From: Candidatus Kerfeldbacteria bacterium RIFCSPLOWO2_02_FULL_42_19
GTDB lineage: Bacteria; Patescibacteriota; Patescibacteriia; HO2-48-17
Length of the DNA: 64,000 bases
Direction of reading: 5' to 3'
NCBI GenBank assembly: GCA_001818315.1
Contig: MHKF01000012.1
Span: forward strand, 251,149-315,148
This document shows, in pieces, positions 6,160-39,885 of this stretch. Positions within the stretch are counted from its first letter, which is position 1. Every line of letters begins with the position of its first letter. The notes beneath the pieces are model-generated. The model was not told the DNA's origin, ran no database searches, and worked only from the letters and a program-made list of their open reading frames with translations. The translations under genes were made by a program, and so were the position numbers.

Positions 6160-6420
6160 TTAAAGAGACTGTCGCTGAATATGCTCGCGTCTGTGAGAAA
6201 TGAATGTGCATCATAGCAAGAGAGGAAGAAAACTCTCCTTTCTCAGCACACTGTGCAGTGTCAGTGCTTCGAAAGGGAGAGTCTGCCTCCTCTTTATGTT
6301 TTGTTCATTGGGTCTGTCGCCGAATACGCTTTCGTCTGTGAAATGCTACAATTGTAACAGAAATGGTATTCGGCGACAGACCCTCATTGCACAAGAAATG
6401 GCATTCAGCGCCAGTCTCTT
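6160..6420. repeat. Composite nested palindromic repeat (hairpin family A with two outer arm pairs)
   Basis: Two arm pairs are present. The first is agactgtcgctgaatatgc paired with gcattcagcgccagtctct. The second is gggtctgtcgccgaatac paired with gtattcggcgacagaccc. A hairpin lies between them, with the shared core ctcagcacactgtgcagtgtcagtgcttcgaaag as its loop. Confidence 0.8.
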
Positions 6421-6524
6421 GAAAGGCACATTGAATCGTACACGTATTTTGTTTATGATATACATACAATCTTTACATTGATCATTCCGCACCTATTAAA
6501 TACGCGGGAGTATATCGTCATTCT

Positions 6525-7706
6525 ATGCATAAATATTTTTCTATCCCCATCTTTCGCAGTCTTTTTGTTCTTTTACTTATTTGTACGTCTTTTCTCGCTG
6601 GCGCAGTTGGTGGTGCGTGGGTCGTGCTGCTCTATCAAACGCAAGGGCAAAATATCGCCACCCCCAAAATTTCACAGAAATTGACACAAAAGCTTGTGGA
6701 GGAAGAATCTGGTGCGATTGCCGTTGCGAAATCTGTTACTCCATCGGTTGTGAGTATTGTGATCTCCAAAGAGCTTGAAAGCATTGTGCAGCGTGGGCCG
6801 TTTCTTTTTGAAAGCGAAGGTTCGGGTGAGTTTCGAGATGTTGGCGGTGGAACAGGTTTCTTTGTTTCCAAAGACGGTCTTATCTTGACGAATCGACATG
6901 TTGTCAGTGATGAGGAAGCGCAGTATTCTGTCGTACTATCTGATGGCAGGCGTCGTTCGGCAGAAATTCTTTCGCGCGATCCGTTGAATGATCTTGCGAT
7001 TGTGAAAATTGTTCCCGAGAACAGCGAAAAGTTTCAACCTCTTGAAATTGGCGATTCCAGCGCTTTGCAAGTCGGACAAACGGTTCTTGCTGTCGGCAAT
7101 TCCCTTGCTGAGTTCCAGAATTCCGTTACGAAGGGTGTGATTAGTGGCTTGGGACGCGAAGTCGTTGCCGGAACCTTTCAGGATCAAGAGCTTTTGCGTA
7201 ATCTTTTGCAGACAGATGCCGCTATTAACCCCGGTAATTCCGGCGGACCGCTGGTGAATATTGCCGGGCAGGTTGTCGGAATTAATACAGCTATTGCTGG
7301 CGGCGCAGAAAATATTGGTTTTGCGATTCCTATTAATGAAGCAAAGAAGGCTCTCGATAGTTTTTACGAGTTCGGTGAGATTGTGCGACCGATGCTCGGC
7401 GTTCGATATATTCCCGTGAATAAAGATGTCGCAGAAGCACTTGAACTGCCTGTGGATTACGGAGCACTCTTACGAGGTGATCCATTAGGAGGAGAGCCAG
7501 CGGTTCTTTCGGGAAGTCCAGCGGATCAAGTCGGATTGAAAGATGGAGATATTCTTCTTGCTATTGACGGTGTTACTTTGGATGAAGAGCATATGCTTTC
7601 GGATCTCATTAGCGAACATGCAGTGGGCGATACGATCCGTGTGCGGTATATGCGTAATAAAGAAGAATTGGAGATTGATGTAACGCTTTCGAAATTTGGA
7701 TCGTGA
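6525..7706 (+). CDS. htrA: HtrA/DegP-family serine protease with a C-terminal PDZ domain
   Basis: N-terminal TM segment. Trypsin-fold motifs (TNRHVV, DLAIVKI, GNSGGPLVN). A PDZ domain (GALLRGDPLGGEPAVLSGSPADQVGLKDGDILLAIDG). Confidence 0.92.
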   Translation: MHKYFSIPIFRSLFVLLLICTSFLAGAVGGAWVVLLYQTQGQNIATPKISQKLTQKLVEEESGAIAVAKSVTPSVVSIVISKELESIVQRGPFLFESEGSGEFRDVGGGTGFFVSKDGLILTNRHVVSDEEAQYSVVLSDGRRRSAEILSRDPLNDLAIVKIVPENSEKFQPLEIGDSSALQVGQTVLAVGNSLAEFQNSVTKGVISGLGREVVAGTFQDQELLRNLLQTDAAINPGNSGGPLVNIAGQVVGINTAIAGGAENIGFAIPINEAKKALDSFYEFGEIVRPMLGVRYIPVNKDVAEALELPVDYGALLRGDPLGGEPAVLSGSPADQVGLKDGDILLAIDGVTLDEEHMLSDLISEHAVGDTIRVRYMRNKEELEIDVTLSKFGS

Positions 7707-7760
7707 TAGGAACTACGCTCGGACGTATCTTTCTATTTCATACGCATTTCTCTATAAATA

Positions 7761-8321: not shown

Positions 8322-8359
8322 TCAAAAAAGCAGGAGAGGAGGTACATACATCTTTTTGT

Positions 8360-9487: not shown

Positions 9488-9848
9488 TAATAGAAATTTG
9501 CGTTTGAACACATTTTTCTTAAACAGTGCATTATCAATTAAATCCCGAATCCAAAGTTTCTAAGTTTCGGAGGCTTCTTTCGTGTTGTTTAAGCTGTTGT
9601 AGATCCGGTTTTTTTGCTCCAGATGTTTGACGCTTTTCCGTCGCTTCATCTTTTTCGACAAAAGCGTATTGCTCCATGGAGGGCGTGATATTTTTTTCTG
9701 ACATATATTTTTAGGCTAACATACGATTTCCTTCTTGCCAATACGTGTGTTATCCACAGGTTGCATTTGACATTCTTTTTTCTTGTGATATTCTCATAAG
9801 TGATGGGCGAGTCCTCTCGGAAACGAGGGGGCTTTTGCTTTTTGTTGC

Positions 9849-15495: not shown

Positions 15496-15657
15496 GTGAG
15501 AGGCAGGGATGCATATATTTTTTTCAAATGCTGTGATATCCAAACATGAACGATCTGTATTTGAAAGAGTTGCTGTAGTGCACACTTCCTTTCTGTATCT
15601 ACACAGTTGCTTATCACAACACATTTGAAAAAATTTATGCATCCCTGCCTCTCACGA
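15496..15657. repeat. Large intergenic palindrome with a 34-bp near-perfect stem and about 90-nt interior
   Basis: gtgagaggcagggatgcatatatttttttcaaatg pairs with catttgaaaaaatttatgcatccctgcctctcac. It sits between the dsbA-like and doxX-like genes. Confidence 0.8.
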
Positions 15658-18102: not shown

Positions 18103-18122
18103 TACTCTCTTCAACTTGTTCC

Positions 18123-18230
18123 CCGGGATAAATTTTTTTCAGAACACACGGAAAAGTGTCCTGCAAAAAATTATCCCAGGGAGCGAGTTGAATCGACTTG
18201 CATACTTTCATAGCTAAGGAAAAGTGTCCT
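18123..18230. repeat. Small palindromic element (family B: inverted-repeat arms around the TTCAGAACAC..GAAAAGTGTCC core) plus a partial direct duplicate
   Basis: ccccgggataaattttt pairs with aaaaaattatcccaggg, flanking cagaacacacggaaaagtgtcctgc. ggaaaagtgtcctgcaaaa repeats at 18209. Confidence 0.7.
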
Positions 18231-18311
18231 GCAAAACAATACCCCGCAGGAGAGAGCGAGAGTTTCATCTTCACTCGAGTGCACTGTTTCCTAAATTTTT
18301 AACCTCATTTT

Positions 18312-20670: not shown

Positions 20671-21522
20671 ATGCTCCAAAAGATTGTGCAAATCGACAAA
20701 CTTGAGAGACTTGCGAACACGATTCGGCAAGATGTGATGCGTATGCTTGTTGCCGCTGGTTCAGGGCATTCTGCCGGGCCGCTTGGTATGGCCGATGTAT
20801 TTACGGCGCTGTATTTTACTATTCTCAATCACGACCCCAAACGGCCGAATTGGCCGGATCGCGATCGTTTGTATTTGTGTTGTGGCCATATCTGTCCTGT
20901 GCGTTATGCGGCGATGCTGCGTGCAGGCTATGGACCTGTTTCTGAAGGAAAAACATTGCGGAAACTTGGTTCGCGTCTGCAAGGGCATCCGGCGCTCCAT
21001 CACTGGGACGCTGTGGAATCTTCGTCTGGCCCTCTCGGCCAAGGCATTTCTATAGCTGTTGGCGCGGCGCTCGCTGCAAAACTTGACCACAAGAAACACT
21101 TTGTGTTTTGTGTGATGAGCGATGGGGAGCTTCAAGAAGGTCAAGTTTGGGAAGCTTATATGTTTGCTGGAAAACACAAACTTGGGAATCTTGTGACGAT
21201 TATTGATCGAAACAATATTCAGATTGATGGATTTACGGAAGAGGTTATGCCGCTCGAGCCGCTTGCAGATAAATTTCGAGCCTTTAACTGGCATGTGTTG
21301 GAAATCGACGGGAATAATATGGAGCAGATTCTGGATGCATGTAATCTCGGAAAAACGATTTATGAAAAACCAACAGTGATTATTGCGCATACGGTTCCGG
21401 GGAAAGGTGTTGATTTTATGGAAGCGGATTTTGCTTGGCACGGCAAACCTCCGAAGCCCGATGAAGCGCGTGTAGCTCTACGGGAATTACGGACACTGCG
21501 AGGGCGTATTCAACCTGAATAG
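20671..21522 (+). CDS. tktA: Transketolase, N-terminal (TPP pyrophosphate-binding) subunit
   Basis: GSGHSAGPLGMADVFTALYF, GHPA, SSGPLGQGISIAVG and DGELQEGQVWEA. Confidence 0.9.
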   Translation: MLQKIVQIDKLERLANTIRQDVMRMLVAAGSGHSAGPLGMADVFTALYFTILNHDPKRPNWPDRDRLYLCCGHICPVRYAAMLRAGYGPVSEGKTLRKLGSRLQGHPALHHWDAVESSSGPLGQGISIAVGAALAAKLDHKKHFVFCVMSDGELQEGQVWEAYMFAGKHKLGNLVTIIDRNNIQIDGFTEEVMPLEPLADKFRAFNWHVLEIDGNNMEQILDACNLGKTIYEKPTVIIAHTVPGKGVDFMEADFAWHGKPPKPDEARVALRELRTLRGRIQPE

Positions 21523-21554
21523 CATTATAGTATTGAAAATCGCAGTATAAGAGT

Positions 21555-21700
21555 TTGGTGAATATCGCTTTTTCGGAACCGGCGCTCGGTCGCTTCCGGC
21601 GAGCGACCGGCGCCTGCGCCTCTCAGCGCGCCGGCCCTACGGGACCAATCCCGGCGCGCTTCCGAGAGCTTCCTCAAAAGCAATATTCACCAAACTCTAA
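21555..21700. repeat. GC-rich structured element bounded by perfect 19-bp terminal inverted repeats, in the tktN-tktC spacer
   Basis: gtttggtgaatatcgcttt and its reverse complement aaagcaatattcaccaaac sit at the two ends. The interior contains two GC hairpins. The first is ggcgc.cggtcgc.ttccggcga.gcgaccg.gcgcc. The second is agcgcgccgg, a 16-nt loop, then ccggcgcgct. The interior is about 70% GC against about 40% for the genome. Confidence 0.8.
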
Positions 21701-21718: not shown

Positions 21719-22768
21719 ATGCAACTCGTTGATTCCGCGCATCTTTCTCCAAAACTTTTTCGTAAGACTATTACCCTCGCACCTACTCGAGATGGATATG
21801 GACAAGGTCTTGTTGAAGTAGGGAAGCAAAATCCTAACGTTGTTGTTTTGTGTTGTGATTTAACCGAATCCACACGTTCCAATCTTTTTGCCGAGAAGTT
21901 TCCTGATCGGTTTATAGAAGTCGGCGTTGCCGAACAAAACATGGCTGGGATTGCCGCTGGGCTTGCTCTTCACGGTAAAGTTCCTTTTATGTCGAGTTAT
22001 GCTGTGTTTAGCCCCGGGAGAAATTGGGATCAATGTCGCGTGAGTATTTGTTATAATTCGGCGAATGTGAAAATCGCTGGCGCGCACGCCGGCATTTCGG
22101 TGGGTCCTGATGGAGCGACGCATCAAGCGCTTGAAGATCTTGCAATTACGCGCGTGCTTCCCGGCATGACCGTTGTTGTGCCCTGCGATGCGATTGAAGC
22201 GCAAAAGGCGACTGTTGCGGCTGCCAAGATGCGCGGGCCGGTGTACCTCCGTTTTGCGCGCGAGAAAACGCCTGTGTTTACTACAGCAAAAACGCCGTTT
22301 CGCATTGGCCGAGTCGCATTACTGACTGCTGGTGTTGACGTGAGTATTATCGCGTGCGGATCTCTTGTGTATCAGTCGCTGCTTGCTGCAAAGGAACTTG
22401 CGAAACAAAAAATGAGTGCGCAGGTGATTAACTGTCATACACTGAAACCTCTGGATGGCAACAATCTTCTGCGTTTTGTGAAAGCGACAGGTGCAATCGT
22501 CACGGTGGAAGAACATCAGATTCACGGCGGCTTGCGCGGCGCAATTGCAGAATATTTTTCTGCTGTGTACCCTGTGCCGATTCGCTCTGTTGGCATGCCG
22601 GATCGTTTCGGTGAATCGGGTGAGCCCGAGGAGCTCTTGGAAAAATACGGCATGACTGTTGAACGTATTGTGGAAGAGTCTTTGCGGGCAATACGCATGA
22701 AATCACTTAAGCATAAGAGGAATGACACATTTGCGCGAAGTTCGAGGAAAAAACGAAGCGCAGAATAA
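21719..22768 (+). CDS. tktB: Transketolase, C-terminal (pyrimidine-binding and C-terminal domain) subunit
   Basis: TRDGYGQGLVE, EVGVAEQNMAGIAAGLALHG and the transketolase C-terminal domain. Confidence 0.9.
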   Translation: MQLVDSAHLSPKLFRKTITLAPTRDGYGQGLVEVGKQNPNVVVLCCDLTESTRSNLFAEKFPDRFIEVGVAEQNMAGIAAGLALHGKVPFMSSYAVFSPGRNWDQCRVSICYNSANVKIAGAHAGISVGPDGATHQALEDLAITRVLPGMTVVVPCDAIEAQKATVAAAKMRGPVYLRFAREKTPVFTTAKTPFRIGRVALLTAGVDVSIIACGSLVYQSLLAAKELAKQKMSAQVINCHTLKPLDGNNLLRFVKATGAIVTVEEHQIHGGLRGAIAEYFSAVYPVPIRSVGMPDRFGESGEPEELLEKYGMTVERIVEESLRAIRMKSLKHKRNDTFARSSRKKRSAE

Positions 22769-22780
22769 TAAGACACGATA

Positions 22781-24010
22781 ATGACGCGGGAAAGCGCATT
22801 AGCATATTTTGAAGATGTATTACAAGCTTACGATCTTGCGCAATACGTCGCAGTTTTAGAAGCAGCGAGTGGCAAGAAAGTGATCGCTCGTTTTGCAGAG
22901 GAACTTTTTGATCATTGGAAGCAGCACAGTACACAACTTGGACTTTCGCCACGAAGCAGTGCACAAATCGTATTTACGAAGCTTCAGGAGCGTATGCAGC
23001 GTGTTGAACAAGCGCTTCGGTCTTTTTTCGAGGATCCAACATGTACGACTCTTGCATCATGGCAAACACTCTTCGAACGACTCGCTGCCTCCGTCGATCG
23101 ACACTATCTTCGCGGATTTTTCCTGAAGCAGACGGTTTGTAAGGAACTTCTACGCGCCTTTCCGCCGAAGCACGTCATGAAATTTCTTGGGTATAACAAT
23201 TTCGATGTTTTGCTTGAGCATGAGGATGTATTTGAAATTATGGCATCGCTTCGGTTTGGCGAAACCAAGGAATGGATGCATGATTTTTTTCGTCAATATA
23301 CTGACTTACGTTCATCGGATTTTGAAATACGCCAAGTCCAATGGCGTGTTTTGGATCCCCGCAAATGGGCGGCATTAAGCGATCGATTTCAACATCAAAA
23401 ATTTCATCAGTTGAGTCATCTCAAAGAAGTTGGGTTGATTTTTTTCCTTCCGCATTTTGAGTCACGTGACACGTATATTCTTATAAAACCAATGTCACTT
23501 TTCCTTCACTATGTGTATGAAATTCATTTTTTTAGTGAGTCTTTTCAGGCGGCAGCGCAAGCACCGGAAACATTTACGCAGACGCTCATTGCTCTTCTGA
23601 AGGGTGATGTTCGCATTCCGCCAGTCAAACGCACCGTCATTCCAATACTCCATCAGTATCATCTCAAAGAAGCTTCGCCTGATCCGCGAGCCTTTCAACC
23701 CCATGTACATACAGAAGTTTTGCATTGGAAGCGAGCAGTCGAAACACTTTTCAGTCTTCTTTCAAGCCAACTTTCGCCGGAAGATGTGCAGCTTTTTCAT
23801 GATGGAAATATACTCGTCCAGCGCATTGGCGAGAAACTTGTGAGCATGAATTTTTCTGATCTTGCTATTGATGAAAGGAATATAAAGACGTATCATGTAC
23901 ATGAAGCACTGTGGAACGCGCTTTTTGTTGCGCATTTTTCTGAAGAGGTTTTACGCAGCGCTTTCCTTACTCATCTTTCGCTCGGGTACTTTGATGTTAA
24001 AGCTTTGTAA
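22781..24010 (+). CDS. Hypothetical protein
   Basis: 409-aa ORF with genome-typical composition and no motif I recognise. Confidence 0.5.
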   Translation: MTRESALAYFEDVLQAYDLAQYVAVLEAASGKKVIARFAEELFDHWKQHSTQLGLSPRSSAQIVFTKLQERMQRVEQALRSFFEDPTCTTLASWQTLFERLAASVDRHYLRGFFLKQTVCKELLRAFPPKHVMKFLGYNNFDVLLEHEDVFEIMASLRFGETKEWMHDFFRQYTDLRSSDFEIRQVQWRVLDPRKWAALSDRFQHQKFHQLSHLKEVGLIFFLPHFESRDTYILIKPMSLFLHYVYEIHFFSESFQAAAQAPETFTQTLIALLKGDVRIPPVKRTVIPILHQYHLKEASPDPRAFQPHVHTEVLHWKRAVETLFSLLSSQLSPEDVQLFHDGNILVQRIGEKLVSMNFSDLAIDERNIKTYHVHEALWNALFVAHFSEEVLRSAFLTHLSLGYFDVKAL

Positions 24011-25024: not shown

Positions 25025-25046
25025 TAGAATCCTACAATAACGCTTC

Positions 25047-25107
25047 TTCTTGAGGATATATTGCTTTTCAGAACACCCAGAAAAGTGTTCGTTCAAAGCA
25101 ATATATC
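25047..25107. repeat. Small palindromic element, family B
   Basis: cttgaggatatattgcttt pairs with aaagcaatatatcctcgag, flanking cagaacacccagaaaagtgttcgttc. The core is shared with the 18123 copy, and the arm ends are related to the 21555 element. Confidence 0.7.
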
Positions 25108-25132
25108 CTCGAGAAGACACTCTTTTTTTGGT

Positions 25133-25936
25133 ATGATTCCTTATTATCAATTCACTACTTTAAACATTGGACCCATCACGATACAAGTGTGGGGACTTAT
25201 GGTTTCGCTCGGCATCGCAGCAGCGCTGGTAGTTATTTACAAGCGGGCTAAAAGATTTGGTTTGGACACGCAGTTGATTTTTGACATGGCATTTTGGTTA
25301 TTATTCGGTGCTTTACTCGGTGCGCGGGTTTTATATGTTGTGTATAACCCGACGTATATTTTTGCATCATTCTGGAATTTTTTTCGGGTGTGGGAAGGCG
25401 GCATGTCTATTATGGGTGGGTTCTTAGGTTCACTCCTTGCTGCGTATTTCGTCTGGCGAAAACGGCGATTTGATTTTTTGGCGTATGCTGATGTGATGTT
25501 GTTTGGCTTGCCGTTGGGTTTATTTATTGGCCGATTAGGATGTGGCGCGATTCATGATCATATTGGGAAACCCACGACTCTGCCGTGGGGTATCGCGTGG
25601 CCGGATGGCACCGTGCGTCATGAAAATGGCTTGTACCTCTCGCTGAAAGGCTTAGTCTTGTTTGTGATTATGCTTCTTGCGCACCGCAAGCCGCGATGGA
25701 AAGGGTTTACGACCGTTTTGTTTTTGATCTTGTATGGCACCGTGCGATTTTTTCTTGACTTTTTGCGCGCCGTGGATTTACCGGGAGTTTCCGATGTTCG
25801 TTATTTTGGTTTGACTCCAGCGCAATATTTGAGCATCGTGATGGTACTCTTCGGTGGTTATCTCTATTGGCGACTGAGGCTCCGTAAGTCAGTTGTAGCA
25901 ACTCACTCTGCGCAACATTCGATGACAAATTCATAA
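25133..25936 (+). CDS. lgt: Prolipoprotein diacylglyceryl transferase
   Basis: Lgt signature (GPITIQVWGLM...GARVLYV...GGFLGSLLA...GRLGCGAIHDHIGKPTTLPWGI). Confidence 0.9.
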   Translation: MIPYYQFTTLNIGPITIQVWGLMVSLGIAAALVVIYKRAKRFGLDTQLIFDMAFWLLFGALLGARVLYVVYNPTYIFASFWNFFRVWEGGMSIMGGFLGSLLAAYFVWRKRRFDFLAYADVMLFGLPLGLFIGRLGCGAIHDHIGKPTTLPWGIAWPDGTVRHENGLYLSLKGLVLFVIMLLAHRKPRWKGFTTVLFLILYGTVRFFLDFLRAVDLPGVSDVRYFGLTPAQYLSIVMVLFGGYLYWRLRLRKSVVATHSAQHSMTNS

Positions 25937-25940
25937 AGAG

Positions 25941-26018
25941 CAAAGAGGAGGAAGACTCTACTTTCGCAGCACTGACAAGGCATTATGTGCTGCGAAAGTA
26001 GAGTCTTCCTCCTCTTTT
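25941..26018. repeat. Family A hairpin with a perfect 32-bp stem, immediately 3' of lgt (likely terminator)
   Basis: caaagaggaggaagactctactttcgcagcac, loop tgacaaggcattat, then the exact reverse complement. A T-run follows. Confidence 0.85.
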
Positions 26019-26291
26019 TTCTATGATCAAAATGTATTTTTCACAGGCGAAAGCGCATTCGGCGGCAGTTTCATAAAGGTATTTTTTATTTAGCCATTTT
26101 TTTTATTTTCAACTTGATCATTCCGCGTCAGCTTGCTACGCGGAGGTTCATTTGGAGTAAGTTTGACATTTTCTTTATTTTGTGATATAATTTTATTCCA
26201 AATTCAGGATTGTGAAAGTGCGTCGTGCGCTCTAAGCAATCGCTGAAGGAACCTTAAAAATTCAACAAATGAGCGACCAGCGTTTGTAAAG

Positions 26292-27293
26292 ATGGTCTTT
26301 CGAAACGTCTGGCGCTTCTACAGAAAAAGGGGACAAAGCATGTACTATCTTTGCATTTTTTTAGTGGCAGTCTTCATTGCGTTGATGATTTTCCGGAGGA
26401 ACTGGGATCGGGTGGTGTTCACGGACGCTCACGTTTGGATTTCCGATATCATTGTAGGTGTGGTGGCGGCGGGAGTGTGGTTATTCCTTAATCATCTGAA
26501 TGAGAAGTTCCTGTCGGACTCCGGATGGTGGTGGTTGGTGTATGAAGGTTTCCTCGTGCTTGGGGCGTTTTTCCTACTGCGAGGAACCAGGAAGGTCGTC
26601 CCGCCGTGTAGGAGGTGGCGGGTGTACGGGTTCAACGGCCTCGAGGACCCGGATCTATTGGACGGCCAGAATCTCGTGCCGCCATGGAAGGACGTGTACG
26701 AGGCGGCGGACAACACCGCGGACACCAAATGGGAAATGGTGAAGGGCGAGTGGCAGTGGCGTCGAGATGCCATGCGCTCGACGCTGATCTTGATGGTCCT
26801 TTTCGTTCCAACCTTTCTCCTGCACTGCCTCGTAGAGAACCCGCACTTTCTGGTGGGGGTTTCCTGGGTCAAAACAGGTGCGAGGATTGTGGCCACAGGG
26901 AGCACCACCGTCAGTACGCCTTTCGAGGATTACCTGGAGGAAGAGAAGGCGGTGGAGTACCGGCCATTTTACCCGGAGACCTGCCGCTTCCGGATTGACC
27001 CGCCGGGAAACCCCTCTTTAATTGAGGTTGACATGGTCTTGGAGTCCACTTTGCGGCAAAATCCAGAAGTTTGGACCAGGACGCCGTACACCACGCCGAA
27101 CTTTGGAATTTGGCACCTCCGGAAGCACGAGTTCTATCAGCAGTTCCGGAGGGAGCCGTGGGTTCTCCGGCTGAACCTCAGGCGGGTCGATCAACACGGA
27201 TTTGTTCACAAAACTTACATCCGGTTGATGGTCGACTGTGCGGACCGCGGTCATGGTGCGTCGGGGGCCACTGTAGTATCTGCAGCACCGTGA
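26292..27293 (+). CDS. Hypothetical Trp-rich membrane protein with anomalous GC composition (likely horizontally acquired)
   Basis: Region 26450-27300 is about 58% GC against about 40% elsewhere, with spurious open frames on all strands, typical of high GC. Four N-terminal TM helices. The true start is probably MYYLCIF at 26340. Confidence 0.5.
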   Translation: MVFRNVWRFYRKRGQSMYYLCIFLVAVFIALMIFRRNWDRVVFTDAHVWISDIIVGVVAAGVWLFLNHLNEKFLSDSGWWWLVYEGFLVLGAFFLLRGTRKVVPPCRRWRVYGFNGLEDPDLLDGQNLVPPWKDVYEAADNTADTKWEMVKGEWQWRRDAMRSTLILMVLFVPTFLLHCLVENPHFLVGVSWVKTGARIVATGSTTVSTPFEDYLEEEKAVEYRPFYPETCRFRIDPPGNPSLIEVDMVLESTLRQNPEVWTRTPYTTPNFGIWHLRKHEFYQQFRREPWVLRLNLRRVDQHGFVHKTYIRLMVDCADRGHGASGATVVSAAP

Positions 27294-27457
27294 GTGATGT
27301 CCCTCGATTCTCATACGGCGTCGTAGTGCCCGGCGCCACGATTTTACACCTTCGTTTAGCCCTTTATTAGAACCCTCCAAGCTTTCGAGCGCGGAGGGTT
27401 CTTTGTTTTCTTATAGCACAGTTATCAAAAATGAGTTTCGACAATACACAGATAAGA

Positions 27458-27533
27458 GATAAGAGAGGAGAAGATGATAAGCTTTCGAAGCACTAACACT
27501 GCACTGTGTGCTAAGAAAGGTTATCATCTTCTC
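27458..27533. repeat. Family A hairpin in reverse orientation, 23-bp perfect stem
   Basis: gataagagaggagaagatgataa, a 30-nt loop containing gcactgtgtgctaagaaag (the core in reverse complement), then ttatcatcttctcctctcttatc. Confidence 0.85.
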
Positions 27534-27796
27534 CTCTCTTATCTCGTTTCGATTGTATTGCGCTGCGCCTGTGATTCATCAACTCGTGGTATAATGGGTC
27601 TGTTGCCGAATACCATTTCTGTTGCAATCGTAGCATTTCGGCCAGAATCGCTTCAAAATTTTTCGGCTTATATTCCATATAAACCTCAAAATTTATTCAG
27701 CGATTCTGTCACGAAATTCTACGATTTCACAGGCGAAAGCGCATTCGGCGACAGACCCATAATAGAAATCGATCGTTTACTCTTAAAATTTTCAAC

Positions 27797-32051: not shown

Positions 32052-34004
32052 TTATTGTCGCATCTGTTTGGACCACAGACGGGCATAGATGCCTGTGGTA
32101 TTCAAGAGTTGGCGGTGTGAACCAATTTCGACGAGACGTCCTTCGTGGAACACGAGAATACGATCGAAATTTTGTATTGTTGGTAGTCGGTGGGCTATAG
32201 CGAGCATCGTGCATCGACCTTGTCCTCGAATTTTTTCAATCGCTTGTTGTATGAGCGCTTCGTGTTCCGAATCTACACTGGAAGTAGCTTCATCAAAAAT
32301 GAGCAGCTTCGGTTGACGTGCAATCGCTCGTGCAATGCCAATGAGTTGGCGTTGCCCGCCGGAGAGCAGCATGCCTCGTTCTCCAATGAGCGTGTTATAT
32401 CCATTGGGCAACTTCATAATGAACTCATGTGCTTGCGCAATTTTTGCGGCCGCAATAATTTCGTGCATCGCTTGTTCATGAATATTCTCCGGGTCTATTG
32501 CACTGAAGCACGCAATGTTCTGTGCGATTGTCCGACTAAAGACTTCTACCTCCTGCGGGACGTAACCGATATTTTGTCTCCAATCACTACGTCGTACTGT
32601 TTTTAACGGTTGACCGTTGACAAAAATCGTTCCGTGCTTGGGATCATAGTGACGCAGGAGAAGCTTCACAAACGTCGACTTGCCGCTGCCGGTGAGTCCA
32701 GCAATGCCAATGAATTCGCCAAACTGAATGTTGACATTGACATCGTGTAGCGCACTGGTTCCATTGCTGTGGATCATATCACTACTGACTGCTGGTGTGA
32801 GTTGCTGCGGTGCATCAGTCATTGCAGAGATCGCTTCTTGTGCATGATTGAGTCCATTGTGTGTCGAGCACACGACGAGTCTTTTGCGTGAATTGTATTC
32901 GAAATCCACATCTTCAAATCGGATGAACGATGTTGGATTCGGAACACTCGACAACGGACGAGGATGCGGTAGATCCTCAATCAACGGTGGGGTTTTGAGG
33001 AGGGTTATGAGTCGCTTGATGCCTGTTTCTGCTTCCGCCATTTGCCGACGCACTCGGAAGATGCGATACAAATGAATAAAGTTTTTAATGGAAAGCGTCA
33101 TGCAGAGGTACCATTCTCCAAGCGTGATTCTGCCTGTTACGACGTGGAGACAAATGACGCCTAACACGATGCCGATCGAAACAGCCATACAAAGCCCACG
33201 CACAACATTGTAGCGTATGTACGTCGTGTTGATGTCATACCACAATCGGATTATGTGATTGACTTTTGTTTCAACCCTTTGTTGCACGCGTTCTTGCATC
33301 CCATGCGATTGAATGCTGTTAATATTGAGGGCATTTTCAACCATATCTGATGCCAGCGCTTCTTCATGATCCATTTCTTTTTCATGCATCGGTTTTACGA
33401 CTATTTCCAGTCGCAAGGATAGGTATATGTAAGGAATGATGAGCACGCCGAAGACGGCCATAACCCACCAGTCGTATATGAGGAGCATGACGCTACTGAC
33501 GAGGAGGAGGAATGAGGTGGGGAAGAATTCGTAACACAGGTTGAGGAGAAACATGATCAGGTTATCGATGCCGCGATGTATCTGCTTCATGAGTTCACCT
33601 GAATTGTGTTGTTCGTGGAAGCCGAGTGAAAGATCAAACAGTTTTTGATGCGTCACGATGTACTGATGCCGTGTGCTGTCTGCGATTGTTTTCTTCCAAA
33701 TCTGCCGATCTGCGACGTGATCAATAAGATCAAGTCCGGCGTACAAACCTGTGTAGGCGAGGATGAGCAGTGCGAGATCCCACTGGAGTTGTCTATCGAT
33801 CTGAATGTGTTCGACGTGATTTTTTATGAAGTCGAGGATCTTGCTCAGTAGCCACGGGTCGAGGAGGCGTGCGAGTTGTATGAAGAGCATGAGCATAATG
33901 AGGGTGACGAATGCCTTCTGCACCGGTTTCAAAAGCTCCCAGAGATTTTTTGAGAATACCGAAATTTCTTTCGCGACTTTCGTTAGTTCCAATCTGGACC
34001 GCAT
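32052..34004 (-). CDS. ABC exporter, fused permease/ATPase (MsbA/MdlB-like)
   Basis: Six TM helices followed by Walker A GLTGSGKST, the ABC signature LSGGQRQ, and Walker B LLIFDEATS. Confidence 0.9.
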   Translation of the reverse strand: MRSRLELTKVAKEISVFSKNLWELLKPVQKAFVTLIMLMLFIQLARLLDPWLLSKILDFIKNHVEHIQIDRQLQWDLALLILAYTGLYAGLDLIDHVADRQIWKKTIADSTRHQYIVTHQKLFDLSLGFHEQHNSGELMKQIHRGIDNLIMFLLNLCYEFFPTSFLLLVSSVMLLIYDWWVMAVFGVLIIPYIYLSLRLEIVVKPMHEKEMDHEEALASDMVENALNINSIQSHGMQERVQQRVETKVNHIIRLWYDINTTYIRYNVVRGLCMAVSIGIVLGVICLHVVTGRITLGEWYLCMTLSIKNFIHLYRIFRVRRQMAEAETGIKRLITLLKTPPLIEDLPHPRPLSSVPNPTSFIRFEDVDFEYNSRKRLVVCSTHNGLNHAQEAISAMTDAPQQLTPAVSSDMIHSNGTSALHDVNVNIQFGEFIGIAGLTGSGKSTFVKLLLRHYDPKHGTIFVNGQPLKTVRRSDWRQNIGYVPQEVEVFSRTIAQNIACFSAIDPENIHEQAMHEIIAAAKIAQAHEFIMKLPNGYNTLIGERGMLLSGGQRQLIGIARAIARQPKLLIFDEATSSVDSEHEALIQQAIEKIRGQGRCTMLAIAHRLPTIQNFDRILVFHEGRLVEIGSHRQLLNTTGIYARLWSKQMRQ

Positions 34005-34358: not shown

Positions 34359-34523
34359 GGGCTGTCGCTATAAATACCGTTTCCTGTGCAACGCGCAAAA
34401 GAAAAGAGGAGGAAGACGAGACTTTCTCAGCACACTGTGCAGTTGTTAGTGCTTCGAAAGCTCTTGTCTTCCTCCTCTTTTCTTTATACATGAAATAAGA
34501 AACGGTATTTATGGCGACAGTCC
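34359..34523. repeat. Composite family A element: outer 25-bp inverted-repeat arms plus inner 16-bp-stem hairpin
   Basis: gggctgtcgctataaataccgtttcc pairs with gaaacggtatttatggcgacagtcc. The inner hairpin aaaagaggaggaagac...gtcttcctcctctttt carries the ctcagcacactgtgcag core. Confidence 0.85.
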
Positions 34524-34546
34524 TCTGATTGTCTTTTCGATAATAT

Positions 34547-34780: not shown

Positions 34781-34867
34781 TTTCAACGGTTTTATTTTTT
34801 TGTAATTTTTTTATAAATTGAATTATTTGATATACTATAAGTGTTCATTTTTTTTCGGAGGATTTTT

Positions 34868-35686
34868 ATGCTTCGAGTTGTATCGCTTGCGCCAAGTAAT
34901 ACAGAAATTTTATATGCACTGGGTTGTCAAGATAATATCATTGCAGTAACCAAGCTTTGTGATTATCCCGAAGCTGCTCGTCAGAAGTCACATATTGGTA
35001 CGTGGACTGAGACGGATTGTGACGCTCTTATGAAAGTCGCGCCTGATATTATTCTGACGTCTTATTATTTGCCTGAGGCTTTGCGGCAGTATACTGGCCC
35101 TGGGGAAATTTATCATCTGCATCCAAAGACTCTTGGCGATGTATTTGAATCTATTGTGGAAATTGGATCGCTGTTTGGTAAAGAGCAACAAGCGCAGTCA
35201 CTCGTTGCGAATATGAAGCAGCGTTTCGCGAGCCTTGCGGAATGTAGTGCAGGGCATAATCGACGTTTTTCTGTGTATGCTGAAGAGTGGGGTAATCCTC
35301 CGATGATTGCCGGTAATTGGGTGCCTGAGATTTTGAAAATCGCTGGCGGTGTGACAGGACTCAGAGAAGCTGGGCAGGTGAGTTGTAAGCTCGACGAGTC
35401 TCAGCTGTTTCTTTATAATCCGGAGGTTATTTTGATCCATTGGTGCGGTCGAGCGATGAGGAGCGATGTTGCGGAAGTTCAGTCGAGACCGAATTGGCGG
35501 CATTTGCGCGCTGTACGCGCAGGACATGTGTTTCGTATTGATGATTCATTATTGAATCGACCAGGACCTCGACTTGTTGAAGGCGCACAAGCTGTGCATG
35601 ATGTATTGCATGCGTTGCTGGAAGGCGAGGTTTCGACTCAATATGAAAAAAAATCTACGCGGGTAACATTTTCTACAATTCGCTAA
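34868..35686 (+). CDS. BtuF/TroA-like (class III periplasmic-binding-fold) cobalamin- or siderophore-binding protein, with no signal peptide
   Basis: RVVSLAPSNTEILYALG...KLCDYPE...PDIIL resembles the BtuF N-lobe. No permease or ATPase partner is adjacent. Confidence 0.7.
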   Translation: MLRVVSLAPSNTEILYALGCQDNIIAVTKLCDYPEAARQKSHIGTWTETDCDALMKVAPDIILTSYYLPEALRQYTGPGEIYHLHPKTLGDVFESIVEIGSLFGKEQQAQSLVANMKQRFASLAECSAGHNRRFSVYAEEWGNPPMIAGNWVPEILKIAGGVTGLREAGQVSCKLDESQLFLYNPEVILIHWCGRAMRSDVAEVQSRPNWRHLRAVRAGHVFRIDDSLLNRPGPRLVEGAQAVHDVLHALLEGEVSTQYEKKSTRVTFSTIR

Positions 35687-35690
35687 ACTT

Positions 35691-37283
35691 TTATTTTTGT
35701 GCGACGAGTACAAAAGTTCCTTTTACATTTGCACTGGCGATCGCTATGTGTTTCTCAGGAAAATTTTTTCCGATGTACTGCCATTTTCCGGTTGCATTGT
35801 TATAAAAGGCGATGCGTATTTTTTCTGCGGTCACACCATTTTTTTCTAACTGATCATTTGTGTAATCAAATATGACCGAATACGGTTTTTTGATAATTTT
35901 TGCTTCGGATTTATATGCTTGGCTTAAGACTTTATCCACATCTTTCAAATCAATTTTCGGCATTGTTGTTTTTCTGAGATTAAAATTTGTGTTCTCAAAT
36001 GGCGTCGTCATGTATACTTCTGGATTGAGCCGCGCTGTAATCGTTTTGAGCCAATCAACGCGCGTGAAATATGTATCAGCTACATCTACTTGATAGATAG
36101 TCTGTTTTCCATAAATGATCGCATAGGTATCTGTAGGGATATAGACATCTTTCACACCGCCATTTCCGGTGTTCAGTCCAGAAATCAGAATTTTATCAAC
36201 AACGGGTTGACCTTTCGCGTCCGTTGTTTGAGATGCAATACTGAATTTTGCATTTTTGACGATCGCGCCTTTATCATTACGCAAAATCAGTCTGAGGCCG
36301 CTCAGGCGATAATTGACTTTGGTGAGTTCCGAATCTTTTATTTTTACTTTCCAAATATAATAAAAGAGTTTCGAAACATCTGATGGAATTTTGAGTGCGT
36401 ATTCACCGCTCGGAAGATACGCATCCACTTGACCTTCTAAACCTGTGTAGACATCTGCAAGATGAGTACCGACGATGGGATTTTCTTGCGCGTCATACTT
36501 TTGCGTATACATTGCAATTTTTTTCTCCCGCACGACCTTCTTGTTGATGTTTTGGAGCGCTGTTCTGAGTGTGCCTTGCTTATAATTCACTGTCGTTGTT
36601 TTTCCGCTGGTTGCTGTTTGATTCCAGATATAAAAATATTCTTTGTTACCGGTAGCGTGGAGGCGCACGATGTAACTTCCTGGCGCAAGATACATGTGTT
36701 TTCCGCCAACATCACCAGTGTTAACGTTCGCAGTAACGAGTTTATCTTTATTGAGTTTGGTTTCGTCGATAATTGGATCACCGTCCACATCGAAACCTTG
36801 AATATAAATATCGAAATAGCTATTTTTGACTAATTTTGATTCGGCGTCGCGGATAATGACAAACAGGTCGCTCATTTTGAGCTCGACTACTTGGATACCT
36901 TCTTTCGTTGTAATCTGATCACCCGATACAGAGAAATATCCATACGTGGCGCTCGATTCCCATACTTTGACTGCGTAGGGGCCTTTCGCTGTATCGAGAC
37001 AAAAAATTTCAGTTTGCCCACCTACGTCTGTTTTACCGGAGGTGAGTTTTTTGCTTTCATCGAAATACAGATTCCCATCCGGATCCTTTGTAACGGTATA
37101 GACGATGAAGTTAATATTCGGTACAAGTTTATTATTAGCGTCGCGGGTGATAATTTGCATGCCAGTTTTTTCGGTTTTACACGCTGCGATGCGCGTTTGT
37201 GCAGAAACATTGGGTGTTGATTGTATTTGCATCGCGACGATGATGCCGATGATGAGCACACTGAAACGGATAGAATTCTGCAT
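35691..37283 (-). CDS. Secreted hypothetical protein with about 4 internal repeats
   Basis: Signal peptide, then repeating modules (IIRDAESKLVKNSYFDIYIQGFDVDGDPIIDE and ILRNDKGAIVKNAKFSIASQTTDAKGQPVVDK). Confidence 0.55.
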   Translation of the reverse strand: MQNSIRFSVLIIGIIVAMQIQSTPNVSAQTRIAACKTEKTGMQIITRDANNKLVPNINFIVYTVTKDPDGNLYFDESKKLTSGKTDVGGQTEIFCLDTAKGPYAVKVWESSATYGYFSVSGDQITTKEGIQVVELKMSDLFVIIRDAESKLVKNSYFDIYIQGFDVDGDPIIDETKLNKDKLVTANVNTGDVGGKHMYLAPGSYIVRLHATGNKEYFYIWNQTATSGKTTTVNYKQGTLRTALQNINKKVVREKKIAMYTQKYDAQENPIVGTHLADVYTGLEGQVDAYLPSGEYALKIPSDVSKLFYYIWKVKIKDSELTKVNYRLSGLRLILRNDKGAIVKNAKFSIASQTTDAKGQPVVDKILISGLNTGNGGVKDVYIPTDTYAIIYGKQTIYQVDVADTYFTRVDWLKTITARLNPEVYMTTPFENTNFNLRKTTMPKIDLKDVDKVLSQAYKSEAKIIKKPYSVIFDYTNDQLEKNGVTAEKIRIAFYNNATGKWQYIGKNFPEKHIAIASANVKGTFVLVAQK

Positions 37284-37437
37284 ATAGTTATAAGTAATTT
37301 ATGAAAATAATTTTATATGAGTTTGGTGAATGCTTTGGGTGAATGCTTACAGTGATTCTATTGTAGAATGTGCCAGGTGCTTTGTCTATTGTATTGATGT
37401 ATACTACCGAGTAGTTTGATGAGTTTCGTAAATTTTT

Positions 37438-38049
37438 ATGAACGCAAGAACATCTCACCAGCGTGTTTTTCGATCGCGGATATATACCAAAACCGGTGAT
37501 CGCGGTATGACGGGTTTGTTTGGGTCGAAGCGAGTATCGAAAAATACTTTGCGTATTCATGCCTATGGGTCGGTCGACGAATTAAATACTTGCATTGGAT
37601 ATCTTATCGCTCTTCTTGCGACCGAAAGATTGCTTGACAAGAGTGCGCGCGGGCAGTTGAGCAAAGAATTGCAAAATATTCAACGAACGCTTTTTGTCAT
37701 CGGCGCACAACTCGCCACACCTCAGGATGCAACTCTTTCTATCCCGCGTATTACAGAACAGGTTGTCCGCGATATTGAGCAAGGTATTGATGTGCGTGAC
37801 GCACAGCTTGCGCCTCTTACGCATTTCCTTTTGCCTTCTGGCACACCTGCTGCTTCTTGGTGTCATGTCGTGCGCACGGTGTGTCGTCGTGTTGAGCGAG
37901 ATCTTGTAGCACTCCACGAGCAAGAGCCGGTTTCGGAAGTGCTCCTCCAATATATGAATCGCCTGTCAGATTATTTTTTTGTAGTCGCTCGATTTTTGAA
38001 TCAACAAGCGGGTGTGTCCGAATCCGAGTGGCGGACGCATACAAAGTGA
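37438..38049 (+). CDS. pduO: ATP:cob(I)alamin adenosyltransferase, PduO/MMAB type
   Basis: IYTKTGDRGMTGL...HAYGSVDELNTCIG...RTLFVIGAQLA. The exact start is uncertain. Confidence 0.85.
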   Translation: MNARTSHQRVFRSRIYTKTGDRGMTGLFGSKRVSKNTLRIHAYGSVDELNTCIGYLIALLATERLLDKSARGQLSKELQNIQRTLFVIGAQLATPQDATLSIPRITEQVVRDIEQGIDVRDAQLAPLTHFLLPSGTPAASWCHVVRTVCRRVERDLVALHEQEPVSEVLLQYMNRLSDYFFVVARFLNQQAGVSESEWRTHTK

Positions 38050-39636
38050 TCATGATAACTCGTCGCGTTTTTCCTTCATGTAAGAGAACCATTGTTCGAG
38101 AACTTCGATAATGAGTTGGAACGGTGCTTCGATAATGATGTCGAGTATAAAGAGAAAAATATTGATGCGGGAGAATTTTGTACTGATCCAGTTGCCGACT
38201 CGTAAAAACGGGGTTGTTAGGAAGCCTACGAGAAGTGTAATAATATTTTCGCGTCTTTCAATGAGACTCACTTCTTTGACATGTTGACGTAATCGAAATC
38301 CCAAAAAGCTTGCAAGACACAGGAAAAGGAGAAAAAGCGCGCCGCTGAAGGTATTAAATCCAAAGGAAGAAAGCACGTAAATCATTCCCCCAAACGATAC
38401 GGCGTAGGTGAGTGTATAGAGCGTTGTAAATATAATACTAAAAAAGGTTTTTCGTTTGAGTTTTTTTGGAGGCGTTAGTGCAAGTGCATCGTTATAAATC
38501 ATTTTAGGGAGCACCTCCTGAATTTTTTTGAGGTTTTCTTTTTTCGGCATGCGAATCGTGATGCCGAGGATAAACATGAGGATCGGCGGAAACATAATGT
38601 TGATTTCGAGTGGAATGAGCGCGAGCTCGCCGTGTACATACCGATCGTAAGGAATTTCGAGCAATAACGCGATCAACATTTTTGTGAAAAAGATATAGAT
38701 GATACTTCGTGCGACGCCACGAGTGATTTTTCTGCGAATGATTTTAGCGCGTCGTTTGTACGCCGCTTCTATTTCTTCTTTGAGCGTCTGTTTATCGTTT
38801 AAAAGATTTGCAAAATCTTCTTCATGTTTTTCGAGAAGATCCCGAAGGAGCAAAAAAAGTACGGTATATTTTTTTGTCCACCGGTATAATGTGTCTGTAC
38901 GCTGATGTTTAAAATGCGCATCGAGAGCGTTACGAATATTTTCAAAACATGTTGCCATTTTTTCTATCGTATCATTACTCGCATGTTTCCAATGTGGTAC
39001 GTATCTTTCGAGTAGGCGATGGGATATGAGAATTTTATCGGCTTTCAAGAGGGATTGTTCGATTGCAATGAAAAGTTGAATACTTAATTCTTCTTTCGGG
39101 ATATTTTTTAATTCTTCCGGAAGATTCTTTTCGAAAATTTCGTACATGTATGTAGCAAATGCTTCATCCTGGTGAGTATCCGCAAGTTGGGATTCGATTT
39201 CACTTGCTGCAATGCCTATTGTCCATTTAAAGGCTTTTTGACGCTTTTGAAGCCCGTCGTTTTTTTCAATAGTATTGAGAAGCCTTTGATATTTGTGGAT
39301 CGTTTTAGCAATGATCGGAATCATTTTGTCCGAGAGGGTTCGATTTGGGAGGTATCGCGCTCGAATGAGTTCTAATATCAATGATTCAGCGACTTCTTCA
39401 CTTTTTTTCTGGAAGAAGAGGCGCCTTGAAAGGATGCGGGCAATGGCATTTTTACGCAATAAGTGTTCTTCGCTATATTCCAAAGCATTACGGATTCTTT
39501 CGTAAAAGAAAGATGCCTTACTGAGAATTTCATTTACAGCGATCGTCGTGCCGCCTTTTTCACCTTTCACGAGGAGTTCGGTCGGTTGCGCAAAGTATTT
39601 TTGATAGAGTTTTCGGATGATAGCGTCGTTTCCCAT
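38050..39636 (-). CDS. Hypothetical membrane protein (cytoplasmic helical N-domain plus about 6 TM C-domain)
   Basis: 528-aa ORF with no motif I recognise. Confidence 0.5.
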   Translation of the reverse strand: MGNDAIIRKLYQKYFAQPTELLVKGEKGGTTIAVNEILSKASFFYERIRNALEYSEEHLLRKNAIARILSRRLFFQKKSEEVAESLILELIRARYLPNRTLSDKMIPIIAKTIHKYQRLLNTIEKNDGLQKRQKAFKWTIGIAASEIESQLADTHQDEAFATYMYEIFEKNLPEELKNIPKEELSIQLFIAIEQSLLKADKILISHRLLERYVPHWKHASNDTIEKMATCFENIRNALDAHFKHQRTDTLYRWTKKYTVLFLLLRDLLEKHEEDFANLLNDKQTLKEEIEAAYKRRAKIIRRKITRGVARSIIYIFFTKMLIALLLEIPYDRYVHGELALIPLEINIMFPPILMFILGITIRMPKKENLKKIQEVLPKMIYNDALALTPPKKLKRKTFFSIIFTTLYTLTYAVSFGGMIYVLSSFGFNTFSGALFLLFLCLASFLGFRLRQHVKEVSLIERRENIITLLVGFLTTPFLRVGNWISTKFSRINIFLFILDIIIEAPFQLIIEVLEQWFSYMKEKRDELS

Positions 39637-39699
39637 AACTCTATTATATCGTAAAAGACTTTCGCGTCACAAATTAAGGTCATGCCGTTGAACAATAGC

Positions 39700-39885
39700 G
39701 GGACTGTCGTTGAATGTGCTTTTGTCTGTGAAAAAGCATTTGCACAAAGTACAAAGAGGAGCAAGACTCTCCTTTCTCAGCACACTGTGCACTGTCAGTG
39801 TTTCGAAAGCGAGAGTCTTGCTCCTCTTTGTACTTTGAATCACATTCATTGACTCACAGACAAAAGCGCATTCAACGACAGTCCC
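39700..39885. repeat. Composite family A element: 31-bp outer inverted-repeat arms plus perfect 27-bp-stem hairpin
   Basis: gggactgtcgttgaatgtgcttttgtctgtga pairs with tcacagacaaaagcgcattcaacgacagtccc. The inner hairpin is caaagtacaaagaggagcaagactctc and its exact reverse complement, with the ctcagcacactgtgcactgtcagtgtttcgaaag core. Confidence 0.9.

Follow-up and report, generated by a model that had tools for sequence, protein, structure and literature searches.

Family A, a family of hairpin-cored miniature inverted-repeat elements with covarying arms in Candidatus Kerfeldbacteria

MITEs of bacteria (miniature inverted-repeat transposable elements) are defined by terminal inverted repeats, a target duplication of fixed length, the lack of coding sequence and the presence of multiple copies; they have AT-rich targets, they form hairpins, and some of them resemble transcription terminators (PMC10969869). 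In this study, we have analysed a stretch of 64,000 nucleotides (the window) from Candidatus Kerfeldbacteria bacterium RIFCSPLOWO2_02_FULL_42_19 (contig MHKF01000012.1, positions 251,149 to 315,148), and our work concerns the dispersed hairpins in this stretch, which we call Family A. Among the described systems, bacterial MITEs with hairpin-forming transcripts come closest, such as Correia, ERIC, QMITE and also SPRITE, which resembles a terminator (PMC10969869, PMC3049150). As with the Correia/NEMIS elements of Neisseria, ERIC and the QMITEs of Coxiella (PMC10969869), the elements are small and non-coding, they carry terminal inverted repeats and short target-site duplications that fade with time, and they are found at AT-rich intergenic targets, in nested clusters and with very stable predicted stem-loops. 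In contrast to these elements, with which it shares no sequence similarity, Family A has the repeat GGGACTGTCGCCGAATAC, a target-site duplication of 5 bp and a host from the Candidate Phyla Radiation (CPR), and its core with covarying arms and a comparatively conserved tip also occurs without any outer repeats. SPRITE is likewise a dispersed repeat with a terminator-like hairpin as its main feature that lies behind genes and is clustered or nested with other repeats; however, its sequence and its host are unrelated, most Family A copies have a clear inverted repeat and a target-site duplication, and termination is in our case a prediction. Elements of this kind are well known; Family A is a new family among them and comes from an unusual host, an uncultured groundwater CPR bacterium with an unusually small genome.

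Most Family A copies form the centre of a unit of 165-250 bp that is bounded by the inverted repeat GGGACTGTCGCCGAATAC. Between this repeat and the hairpin lies one of two linkers, type X (GCTTTCGTCTGTGAAAAATACATTTTGATCATAG) or type Y (TATTTCTTGTGCAATGCGCAAAGC). The repeat is present at both ends of five units in the window and of about 15 units in other loci, and the outer inverted repeats that the first-pass annotation of the window had proposed are real at 6165-6418, 34359-34524 and 39700-39885. The last of these units folds as a whole into a hairpin of 186 nt (DNA -75 kcal/mol, z -15.8). Three hairpins in the window have only one outer repeat (25933) or none (27453 and 51291); conversely, the same repeat bounds two window units that lack the Family A core, 6310-6383 and 27596-27758 (see Table 1). 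Whole units of 74-254 bp, below the limit of about 300-500 bp that applies to MITEs, are entirely intergenic and contain no real open reading frame (ORF): A frame of 93 amino acids at 6200-6481 merely spans an element.

The search for target-site duplications, which had been suggested as a check, gave a positive result. In a curated set of 23 units, seven are flanked by a perfect duplication of 5 bp and three more match at 4 of 5 positions, whereas only one of 506 control pairs, which combine the left flank of one unit with the right flank of another, is a perfect match, and none of 100,000 permutations reached seven. The duplicated sequences are AT-rich; outside the window they are ATTAT, TATAA, AAAAA and AATAG (loci L027, L038, L028 and L035, respectively; L numbers designate loci on other contigs). 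Moreover, a unit of 74 bp is nested inside the unit 6165-6418 and is flanked by a duplication of its own, TCATT. This nested insertion is indirect evidence of movement. Since terminal inverted repeats and target duplications of fixed length coincide with the absence of coding sequence, with many copies and with nesting, the Family A elements are a MITE family in the structural sense of the term, as the MITE part of the earlier label had it. The elements of the window are listed in Table 1.

Table 1. Family A hairpins and units with the same inverted repeat in the window (strand, strand of the hairpin loop; TSD, target-site duplication)
Element	Position	Strand	Architecture	Flanks or TSD	Location
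Composite MITE	6165..6418	+	Left arm type X, Family A hairpin 6209-6304 (stem imperfect, chimeric), nested 74-bp MITE, right arm type Y'	Flanks TTAAA and TTGAA	
Nested MITE of the same repeat family	6310..6383	.	74 bp; hairpin core absent	TSD TCATT (6305-6309, 6384-6388)	Inside the unit 6165-6418
Family A hairpin (25933-26027) plus single outer arm type X'	25933..26072	-	Inverted repeat 26048-26072; left arm absent; terminal loop diverged		Stem begins 5 nt past the lgt stop codon (25934-25936); then TTTTTTCT
Solo Family A hairpin	27453..27549	-	26-bp perfect, strongly diverged stem; outer inverted repeat not recognisable		Downstream of gene 26292-27293 and its ordinary terminator (27370-27400)
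MITE of the same inverted-repeat family, different core	27596..27758	.	94.7% identical to the L030/L035 copy	TSD ATAAT	
Complete MITE	34359..34524	+	Arms Y/Y'; hairpin 34393-34489	TSD CTGAT	Between divergent genes 32052-34004(-) and 34841-35686(+)
Complete MITE	39700..39885	+	Arms X/X'; hairpin 39743-39838	TSD not visible	Between divergent promoters of 38050-39636(-) and 39953-40618(+)
Degenerate solo Family A hairpin	51291..51385	+			14 nt past the rplL stop codon; then TTTTATTTTTT; between convergent genes, sole terminator-like structure there

The number of six copies in the window that had been deduced from inspection of the sequence proved to be correct. A covariance model built from 26 copies (R1), which was run on the window with the filters switched off, recovered exactly the six hairpins of Table 1 with scores of 67-101 bits; the next best matches in the window reach at most 25 bits and are members of a different hairpin family. 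Matches to the 34-nt core that had originally defined the family are found at 6242(+), 27482(-) and 39776(+) with up to three mismatches (chance expectation 0), and the degenerate tip pattern AGCACACWGTGCAN{4,5}YAGTGYT has five matches where none is expected. As RNA, the six copies fold with minimum free energies of -35 to -62 kcal/mol (z -3.6 to -12.5 as compared to shuffled sequences). Thus, the stems that had been described as perfect or nearly perfect are borne out by folding, but the stem of the copy at 6209 is imperfect. Similarly, the copy that had been listed at 25941-26018 is real, but its loop is on the minus strand, and the element extends to 26072 with one outer arm.

Family A is not confined to the window, as the earlier idea of a dispersed element implied. 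In about 250 kb of contig sequence plus the window, R1 identified 29 best-strand sites that correspond to 28 distinct hairpins, i. e. roughly one hairpin per 10-20 kb, and about 22 of these distinct copies are located on other contigs of the same species or of close relatives (Candidatus Kerfeldbacteria, Rifle aquifer). In the scan of metagenomes, genuine copies of the tip pattern were confined to a handful of contigs. For the histidyl-tRNA synthetase encoded in the window, a protein of Candidatus Kerfeldbacteria bacterium RIFCSPLOWO2_12_FULL_43_9 shows 100% identity (next relative, 69%), and the ribosomal protein L10 is 100% identical to that of Candidatus Kerfeldbacteria bacterium RIFCSPHIGHO2_02_FULL_42_14, the organism label that is also attached to the transposase P0134, which is encoded in GCA_001818335.1. 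The fetched part of contig Ga0156203_104 overlaps Ga0156112_118 at 99.6-100% identity, and Ga0156112_113 and Ga0155531_113 overlap at 100%. From the identity of L10 and these overlaps, we conclude that the loci that bear the copies are other parts of the genome of the same species; Ga0155203 and Ga0209343 belong either to the same species or to a close relative. A horizontal transfer between distant lineages had been considered on account of the 75-95% identity to the metagenome copies, and it was dismissed since L10 is 100% identical to that of the genome that holds those contigs. As identical sequences are present in independent assemblies, the hairpins are not assembly artefacts. The repeats do fragment short-read assemblies: The contigs L007 (which ends at window position 25971), L064 and L065 stop inside or beside hairpins, and in L062 a run of Ns in the scaffold covers the rplL hairpin. 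This gap also accounts for an apparent presence/absence difference in L062.

The tip of Family A looks restricted to this lineage, in agreement with the proposed lineage specificity. Among 185,579 species genomes, the tip pattern gave only six single matches, in unrelated taxa and without the flanks of a hairpin, which is about the number expected by chance; in this collection of one genome per species the source species gave no match, so that the scan is uninformative on the copy number in the source genome. Viral contigs yielded one chance match inside a coding sequence, and plasmids yielded none. In Rfam 15, the sole match in the window at the gathering score is the L10 leader (RF00557, 51.5 bits) at 50077-50218, which precedes rplJ-rplL (window 50077-51277), and no family matches the Family A hairpins; in the permissive mode, either strand of the hairpins matches only generic long hairpins, with scores below the threshold.

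The core of the units is a hairpin of about 80 nt in which an apical module rests upon a lower stem of 20-25 bp. From the base upward, an A-rich run is followed by a purine-rich 5' arm (consensus AAAGAGGAGGAAGA) and by a box of 5-7 bp that varies between the copies (CTCTC, CGAGA, CTATA, TTATAA, TGAGAA, CGCACG, GTATA and others). Above the box, CTTTC pairs with GAAAG, frequently with one bulged base on the 3' side. In the main subfamily, a 2x2 internal loop (TC/TC) separates this helix from a second one, AGCAC/GTGCT, which carries the terminal loop of 14 nt (ACTGTGCA-N-TGT-Y-A); in diverged copies, TC/TC is replaced by pairing bases (GA/TC, AA/TT, GC/GC) or by G-C plus G-T (GG/CT). The region that had been described as an asymmetric loop of 30-40 nt is therefore present, but it is itself structured, with two helices and the 14-nt loop. 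A 2-bp duplication (TC) around the tip was considered as a mark of insertion of the tip, and it is inconsistent across the diverged copies. The 3' arm terminates in a run of Ts, and owing to the palindromic stem, the order of A-tract, stem and T-tract is found on either DNA strand.

The proposal that the arms change in a compensatory manner is strongly supported by our data. RNAalifold predicts 27 pairs, and in 17 of them at least one copy has both sides changed with the pairing retained (8.4 in shuffled alignments). Altogether, 93.4% of the alignment cells are paired (shuffles, 84.0%), 56 cells show a double change (shuffles, 13.8), and the covariation score is 0.285 as compared to 0.123; none of 500 shuffles attained the observed value in any of these measures. 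When the partners were slid by 1-3 columns as a control, the pairing dropped to 42-54%. The same picture emerges from the individual arms: In 18 of the 28 copies (15 strictly, three tied), the best partner of the 5' arm is the copy's own 3' arm, with a mean score of 18.7 versus 10.5 that was not matched in any of 20,000 permutations. Thus, the covariation is far beyond chance in both tests. Between copies, the stems differ at about 30% of the positions and nevertheless retain the pairing, and the variants of the box even form a stepwise complementary series (CTCTC, CTATA, TTATA, TGATA, TGAGA, CGAGA). The outer repeats covary weakly (18.9 versus 17.6 of 24 positions, p about 0.001).

The conservation of the loop, the second half of that proposal, holds in a weaker form. 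Its value of 90% in the full set is inflated because the loci were found via the tip; in eight copies that had not been selected by the pattern, identity amounts to 84% in the apical module and to 70% in the arms, a roughly two-fold difference rather than invariance. Within the free window of the pattern, one position takes all four bases, whereas no more than two of the 28 distinct copies deviate from the TGT next to it, and the maintenance of TGT beside a fully variable position points to some site-specific constraint. As for the level at which the pairing is maintained, G-U and A-C mismatches are nearly equal in frequency. In the 11 copies in tandem gene context, the sense and antisense strands fold with total energies of -574 and -577 kcal/mol and with 12 and 16 G-U pairs, respectively, which gives no signal of strand-specific RNA selection, and the loop has the orientation of the upstream gene in four copies and the opposite orientation in seven, which looks random. 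Since both strands pair equally, the mismatch types are about equally frequent and the orientation looks random, maintenance of the palindrome at the DNA level is an equally good reading of the data. With regard to the earlier conclusion that selection acts on structure, the arms do covary, but covariation alone does not show selection on RNA.

The modules of the units are extensively reshuffled. When the arms are read relative to the loop, about five, six, four and five copies have the combinations X/Y, Y/X, Y/Y and X/X, respectively; the type of the left arm, the type of the right arm and the orientation of the loop assort almost freely. Stems with halves from different subfamilies are present in four or five copies (L031, L013:6193, L030:8009, window 6209, L029). 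One such chimeric stem occurs twice (L013 6193 and 7173), indicating that it has spread after it was formed. The locus L022 contains a second, truncated tip joined to a Y linker at a shared TGCAC. Together with the lack of matched flanks in many units, this reshuffling suggests frequent recombination or gene conversion between copies via the shared tip and stems.

All Family A copies are intergenic. The gene context could be classified for 24 of them: 11 are in a tandem, nine in a convergent and four in a divergent context, and about 20 of the 24 lie downstream of at least one gene. In the window, the proposed location at gene 3' ends applies to four of the six copies, which follow the gene 4716-6056, lgt, the gene 26292-27293 and rplL, but not to the hairpins at 34393 and 39743 in divergent regions. 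The first-pass annotation had placed the latter element after the 38050 gene; as the gene 38050-39636 is on the minus strand, the element at 39700 is located upstream of it, and the hairpin at 39743 lies between two promoter-like sites.

Does the hairpin terminate transcription? The gene 4716-6056 has a classical terminator of its own at about 6125-6160, and the classical terminators of other genes beside Family A copies fit the idea that the elements were inserted behind terminators. At lgt and rplL, the hairpins are followed by a run of Ts, no comparably strong terminator-like hairpin besides Family A was seen at either gene, and the additional hairpin downstream of lgt is weak, with 6 bp and without a T-run; judged by sequence, the copies after both genes have the form of an intrinsic terminator. 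Copies that conform to the consensus are terminator-like on both strands (AAAAGAGG...CCTCTTTT), and a simple terminator scanner does not call them because the loop of 14 nt is atypically large. From these features, we consider it probable that the hairpins serve as transcription terminators in a few copies. The final codons of lgt (window 25905-25940, …GCGCAACATTCGATGACAAATTCATAAAGAGC) have a faint likeness to the right end of the MITE (GCGCATTCGGCGACAG) and to the end of the X linker (TCATAG), and the 3' end of lgt may be derived from a MITE, with a profile match that is not significant (E = 16).

The enzyme that would mobilize the elements was searched for in the window and among the insertion sequences of the species. 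Pfam and NCBIfam scans of about 50 ORFs detected no transposase in the window, and the protein of 333 amino acids that is encoded between two copies (gene 26292-27293) has no relevant match; it is an apparent membrane protein, and its gene has a terminator of its own and a strong consensus promoter (26163-26191). The same species carries an IS5/IS1182-like insertion sequence of 1.52 kb (DUF772, DDE_Tnp_1 and DDE_Tnp_1_6, about 453 amino acids) with the terminal repeat CAGACTGTCCGAGAAC, which is present at L047 2772-4294 and also in L029, L037 and L046. Its repeat has just the core GACTGTC..CGA in common with the MITE repeat, none of the three insertions inspected has a target-site duplication, and the subterminal sequences resemble the X and Y arms no more than by chance (z -1.7 to 1.5), which leaves this element as a weak lead to the parent. 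One of its copies adjoins a frameshifted gene for an IS200-type Y1 transposase (L047 4362-4770) with flanking hairpins of its own, and this gene was set aside as a mobilizer because of the frameshift and because its hairpins are unrelated to Family A. An AT-rich target-site duplication of 5 bp is a feature of the Tn3-derived MITEs as well (TIMEs, PMC4133298). The Tn3 repeat itself differs from that of Family A: It comprises about 38 bp of the form GGGG ... TAAG, with TAAG at the inner end, whereas the Family A repeat has about 18-30 bp, begins with GGG and lacks the inner TAAG. The terminal GGGTCTGTCGC of some copies resembles, over about 12 nt, what we take to be the start of the Tn3 repeat, GGGGTCTGACGC, and this serves as a lead only. 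Finally, integron attC sites have conserved outer R sites, DNA uptake sequences contain a short motif that is borne on a stem, dif/Xer sites are present in a single copy, and a retron msd is accompanied by an adjacent reverse transcriptase; Family A lacks these defining features, and the four types of element were discarded.

A homologue of the Family A hairpin is present in a relative whose L10 is 62% identical (Logan SRR22388088, L066). R1 recognizes it with 36.6 bits (E about 1e-6) at 4133-4199 downstream of rplL, where an ordinary terminator (4022-4078) precedes it by about 55 nt. Recognizable features are its purine-rich stem and, with the bulged C, the upper stem CTTTTTC/TCGAAAGC, whereas the tip is largely different and the AGCAC/GTGCT helix is lost. 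From this one example, we conclude that the scaffold is older than the species and that the tip is not universally constrained. Just upstream of this hairpin, there is a possible degenerate relic, AAAAGAGGGAGCTGCACACACGCTTCGGAA. The window itself harbours a second hairpin family, C, which is built on the same plan as Family A: A conserved tip (TCAGAACACMCRGAAAAGTGTYC) is carried by long stems that are unrelated to each other. Its copies are located at 18104-18197(+) and 25033-25128(+), with a partial third copy at 18215-18260; they start 2 and 9 nt past the stop codons of the genes for FBPase and a 2-hydroxyacid dehydrogenase, and the copy at 25033-25128 overlaps the TTG that is called as the start of lgt. 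No copy of family C was found in the other loci that bear Family A.

The observations suggest a scenario to which we assign, as a whole package, a probability of about 0.6: Family A would be the hairpin core of non-autonomous MITEs that are mobilized in trans, that recombine with each other, and in which the pairing is maintained and the hairpin acts as a bidirectional terminator. The full unit consists of the terminal inverted repeat (GGGACTGTCGCCGAATAC), an X or Y linker, the hairpin of about 80 nt, a second linker and the opposite repeat. Mobility would be supplied in trans by a DDE transposase that is encoded elsewhere, and insertion takes place at AT-rich intergenic sites with the duplication of 5 bp, even into another copy. 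After insertion, the copies may exchange sequences through the tip and stems that they share, by recombination or by gene conversion, and this exchange would be responsible for the chimeric stems, the four combinations of X and Y, the two orientations of the loop and the lost flanks. The pairing of the arms would be kept by correction of the palindrome at the DNA level, by selection for a stable hairpin, or by both. RNA polymerase might then read the hairpin from either side as an intrinsic terminator or a stabilizer of 3' ends, and such a bidirectional action would make insertions harmless, so that they would be tolerated behind genes and between convergent genes and useful at lgt and rplL. 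Several of our results weigh against this scenario. No transposase with ends that match GGGACTGTCGCCGAATAC was found among the ORFs of the window or the insertion sequences of the same species that were inspected, 13 of the 23 units have no recognizable target-site duplication, and near-identical contigs reveal neither an empty site nor a presence/absence polymorphism (pairs with 99.6-100% identity carry the same elements). In addition, four copies are located in divergent gene contexts, which do not require a terminator, and the five or six hairpins without an outer repeat carry the most diverged and yet well-paired stems, which a purely selfish and decaying MITE does not predict.

Other explanations were also considered. 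As the main alternative, the hairpin may have been selected by the host as a lineage-specific terminator or protein-binding element with a tip that is read by a specific factor; the solo copies would then be the original functional form, and the MITE would be a hitch-hiker that acquired one such hairpin and dispersed it. The recognizable tip of the solo copies on their diverged but paired stems, the retention of TGT beside a position that takes all four bases, the old scaffold that is attested by the relative, and family C with the same plan directly behind two stop codons are all in line with this idea. Still, we regard it as unlikely, given that the loop has no preferred orientation towards the upstream gene (four sense, seven antisense), that both strands fold equally well without an excess of G-U pairs, that the unbiased tip conservation is just 84% as compared to 70% in the stems, that the tip differs in the relative, and that most copies are part of mobile units bounded by inverted repeats. 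A hairpin that moves in a folded single-stranded form by means of an HUH (Y1) or a hairpin-specific enzyme, as a replicator similar to the REPINs, would offer another explanation, with the covariation of the arms and the two orientations of the loop, which are similarly frequent relative to the X and Y arms (five versus six), as reflections of the hairpin intermediate. Transposition of the REP/IS200 type (IS200/IS605 family) is not known to make a target-site duplication, and in Family A duplications of 5 bp flank the outer repeats. The REPINs and REP sequences that depend on RAYT (PMC3116915, PMC8266576) are, like Family A, long intergenic hairpins with two inverted halves, compensatory changes in the stem, many copies and a species-specific distribution. 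However, REPINs have a RAYT gene and no target-site duplication, and they have conserved ends and a variable middle (PMC3116915), the reverse of Family A, in which the tip is the best-conserved part. No RAYT was found in the sequences examined, and the Y1 gene of the same species, which might speak for such a replicator, is frameshifted and has hairpins unrelated to Family A. In our opinion, this possibility is highly improbable, and the REP part of the earlier label does not apply in the strict sense. The least credible of the alternatives are inert recent duplicates that have inherited their complementarity from one palindromic founder and experience no maintenance. Many copies of the main subfamily do have nearly the same stem (AAAGAGGAGGAAGACTCTC); yet stems that differ at about 30% of their positions are still paired, double changes affect 17 of 27 pairs to an extent that no shuffle attains and that the slid controls (42-54%) fall far short of, and the boxes proceed stepwise from CTCTC to CGAGA through complementary changes. 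Artefactual diverged copies, which could have rescued this already disfavoured explanation, are contradicted by the independent assemblies. Finally, it is tempting to speculate that the hairpin itself, rather than the unit with the inverted repeats, is what evolves: an old, lineage-specific hairpin replicator or recognition site of the CPR, with a tip that would be read by a dedicated factor, and copied or repaired via a folded DNA intermediate, either a cruciform or a hairpin. If true, this would explain the arms that diverge and yet remain complementary, the tip in both orientations, the free assortment of stem halves and arm types, family C and the homologue of the relative with its different tip. 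We consider this idea decidedly improbable. It is kept in view on account of several unexplained features, namely solo hairpins whose diverged stems still pair, a tip that is conserved by comparison, modules that assort freely, and the sister family.

The window contains further repeats and genes that deserve mention. An element of 149 bp at 21550-21698 with inverted arms of 29 bp (AGAGTTTGGTGAATATCGC...) and a very GC-rich core lies in a split transketolase, between the halves 20671-21522 and 21719-22768, and it probably represents another MITE family. A third family may be represented by an element of 160 bp at 15496-15655, the 28-bp inverted arms of which are 96% complementary (GTGAGAGGCAGGGATGCATATATTTTTT) and which is located between DsbA-like and MauE/DoxX genes. 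In place of rpoB, the rplJ-rplL genes are followed by a convergent gene; its product of 558 amino acids has no match in Pfam and is 52% identical to a paralogue encoded at 53188-54858. Of the larger ORFs in the window, about a quarter are without a match in Pfam or NCBIfam, among them 4716-6056, 22781-24010, 26292-27293, 35691-37283, 38050-39636 and 54902-57160.

The genomes of CPR bacteria (Patescibacteria) have a size of about 1 Mb and are regarded as streamlined. In the 64 kb studied here, there are at least eleven palindromic repeat units that belong to several families, and the Family A/GGGACTGTCG group makes up seven of them and about 1.7% of the window. A search of the literature, which was not exhaustive, revealed no report of MITEs in the CPR. 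For the organism, repeats of this type are substrates for recombination and markers for strains, and they may supply terminators to compact operons. Moreover, a covarying hairpin with reshuffled modules provides a clean data set for the question of whether pairing is kept by selection or by DNA repair.

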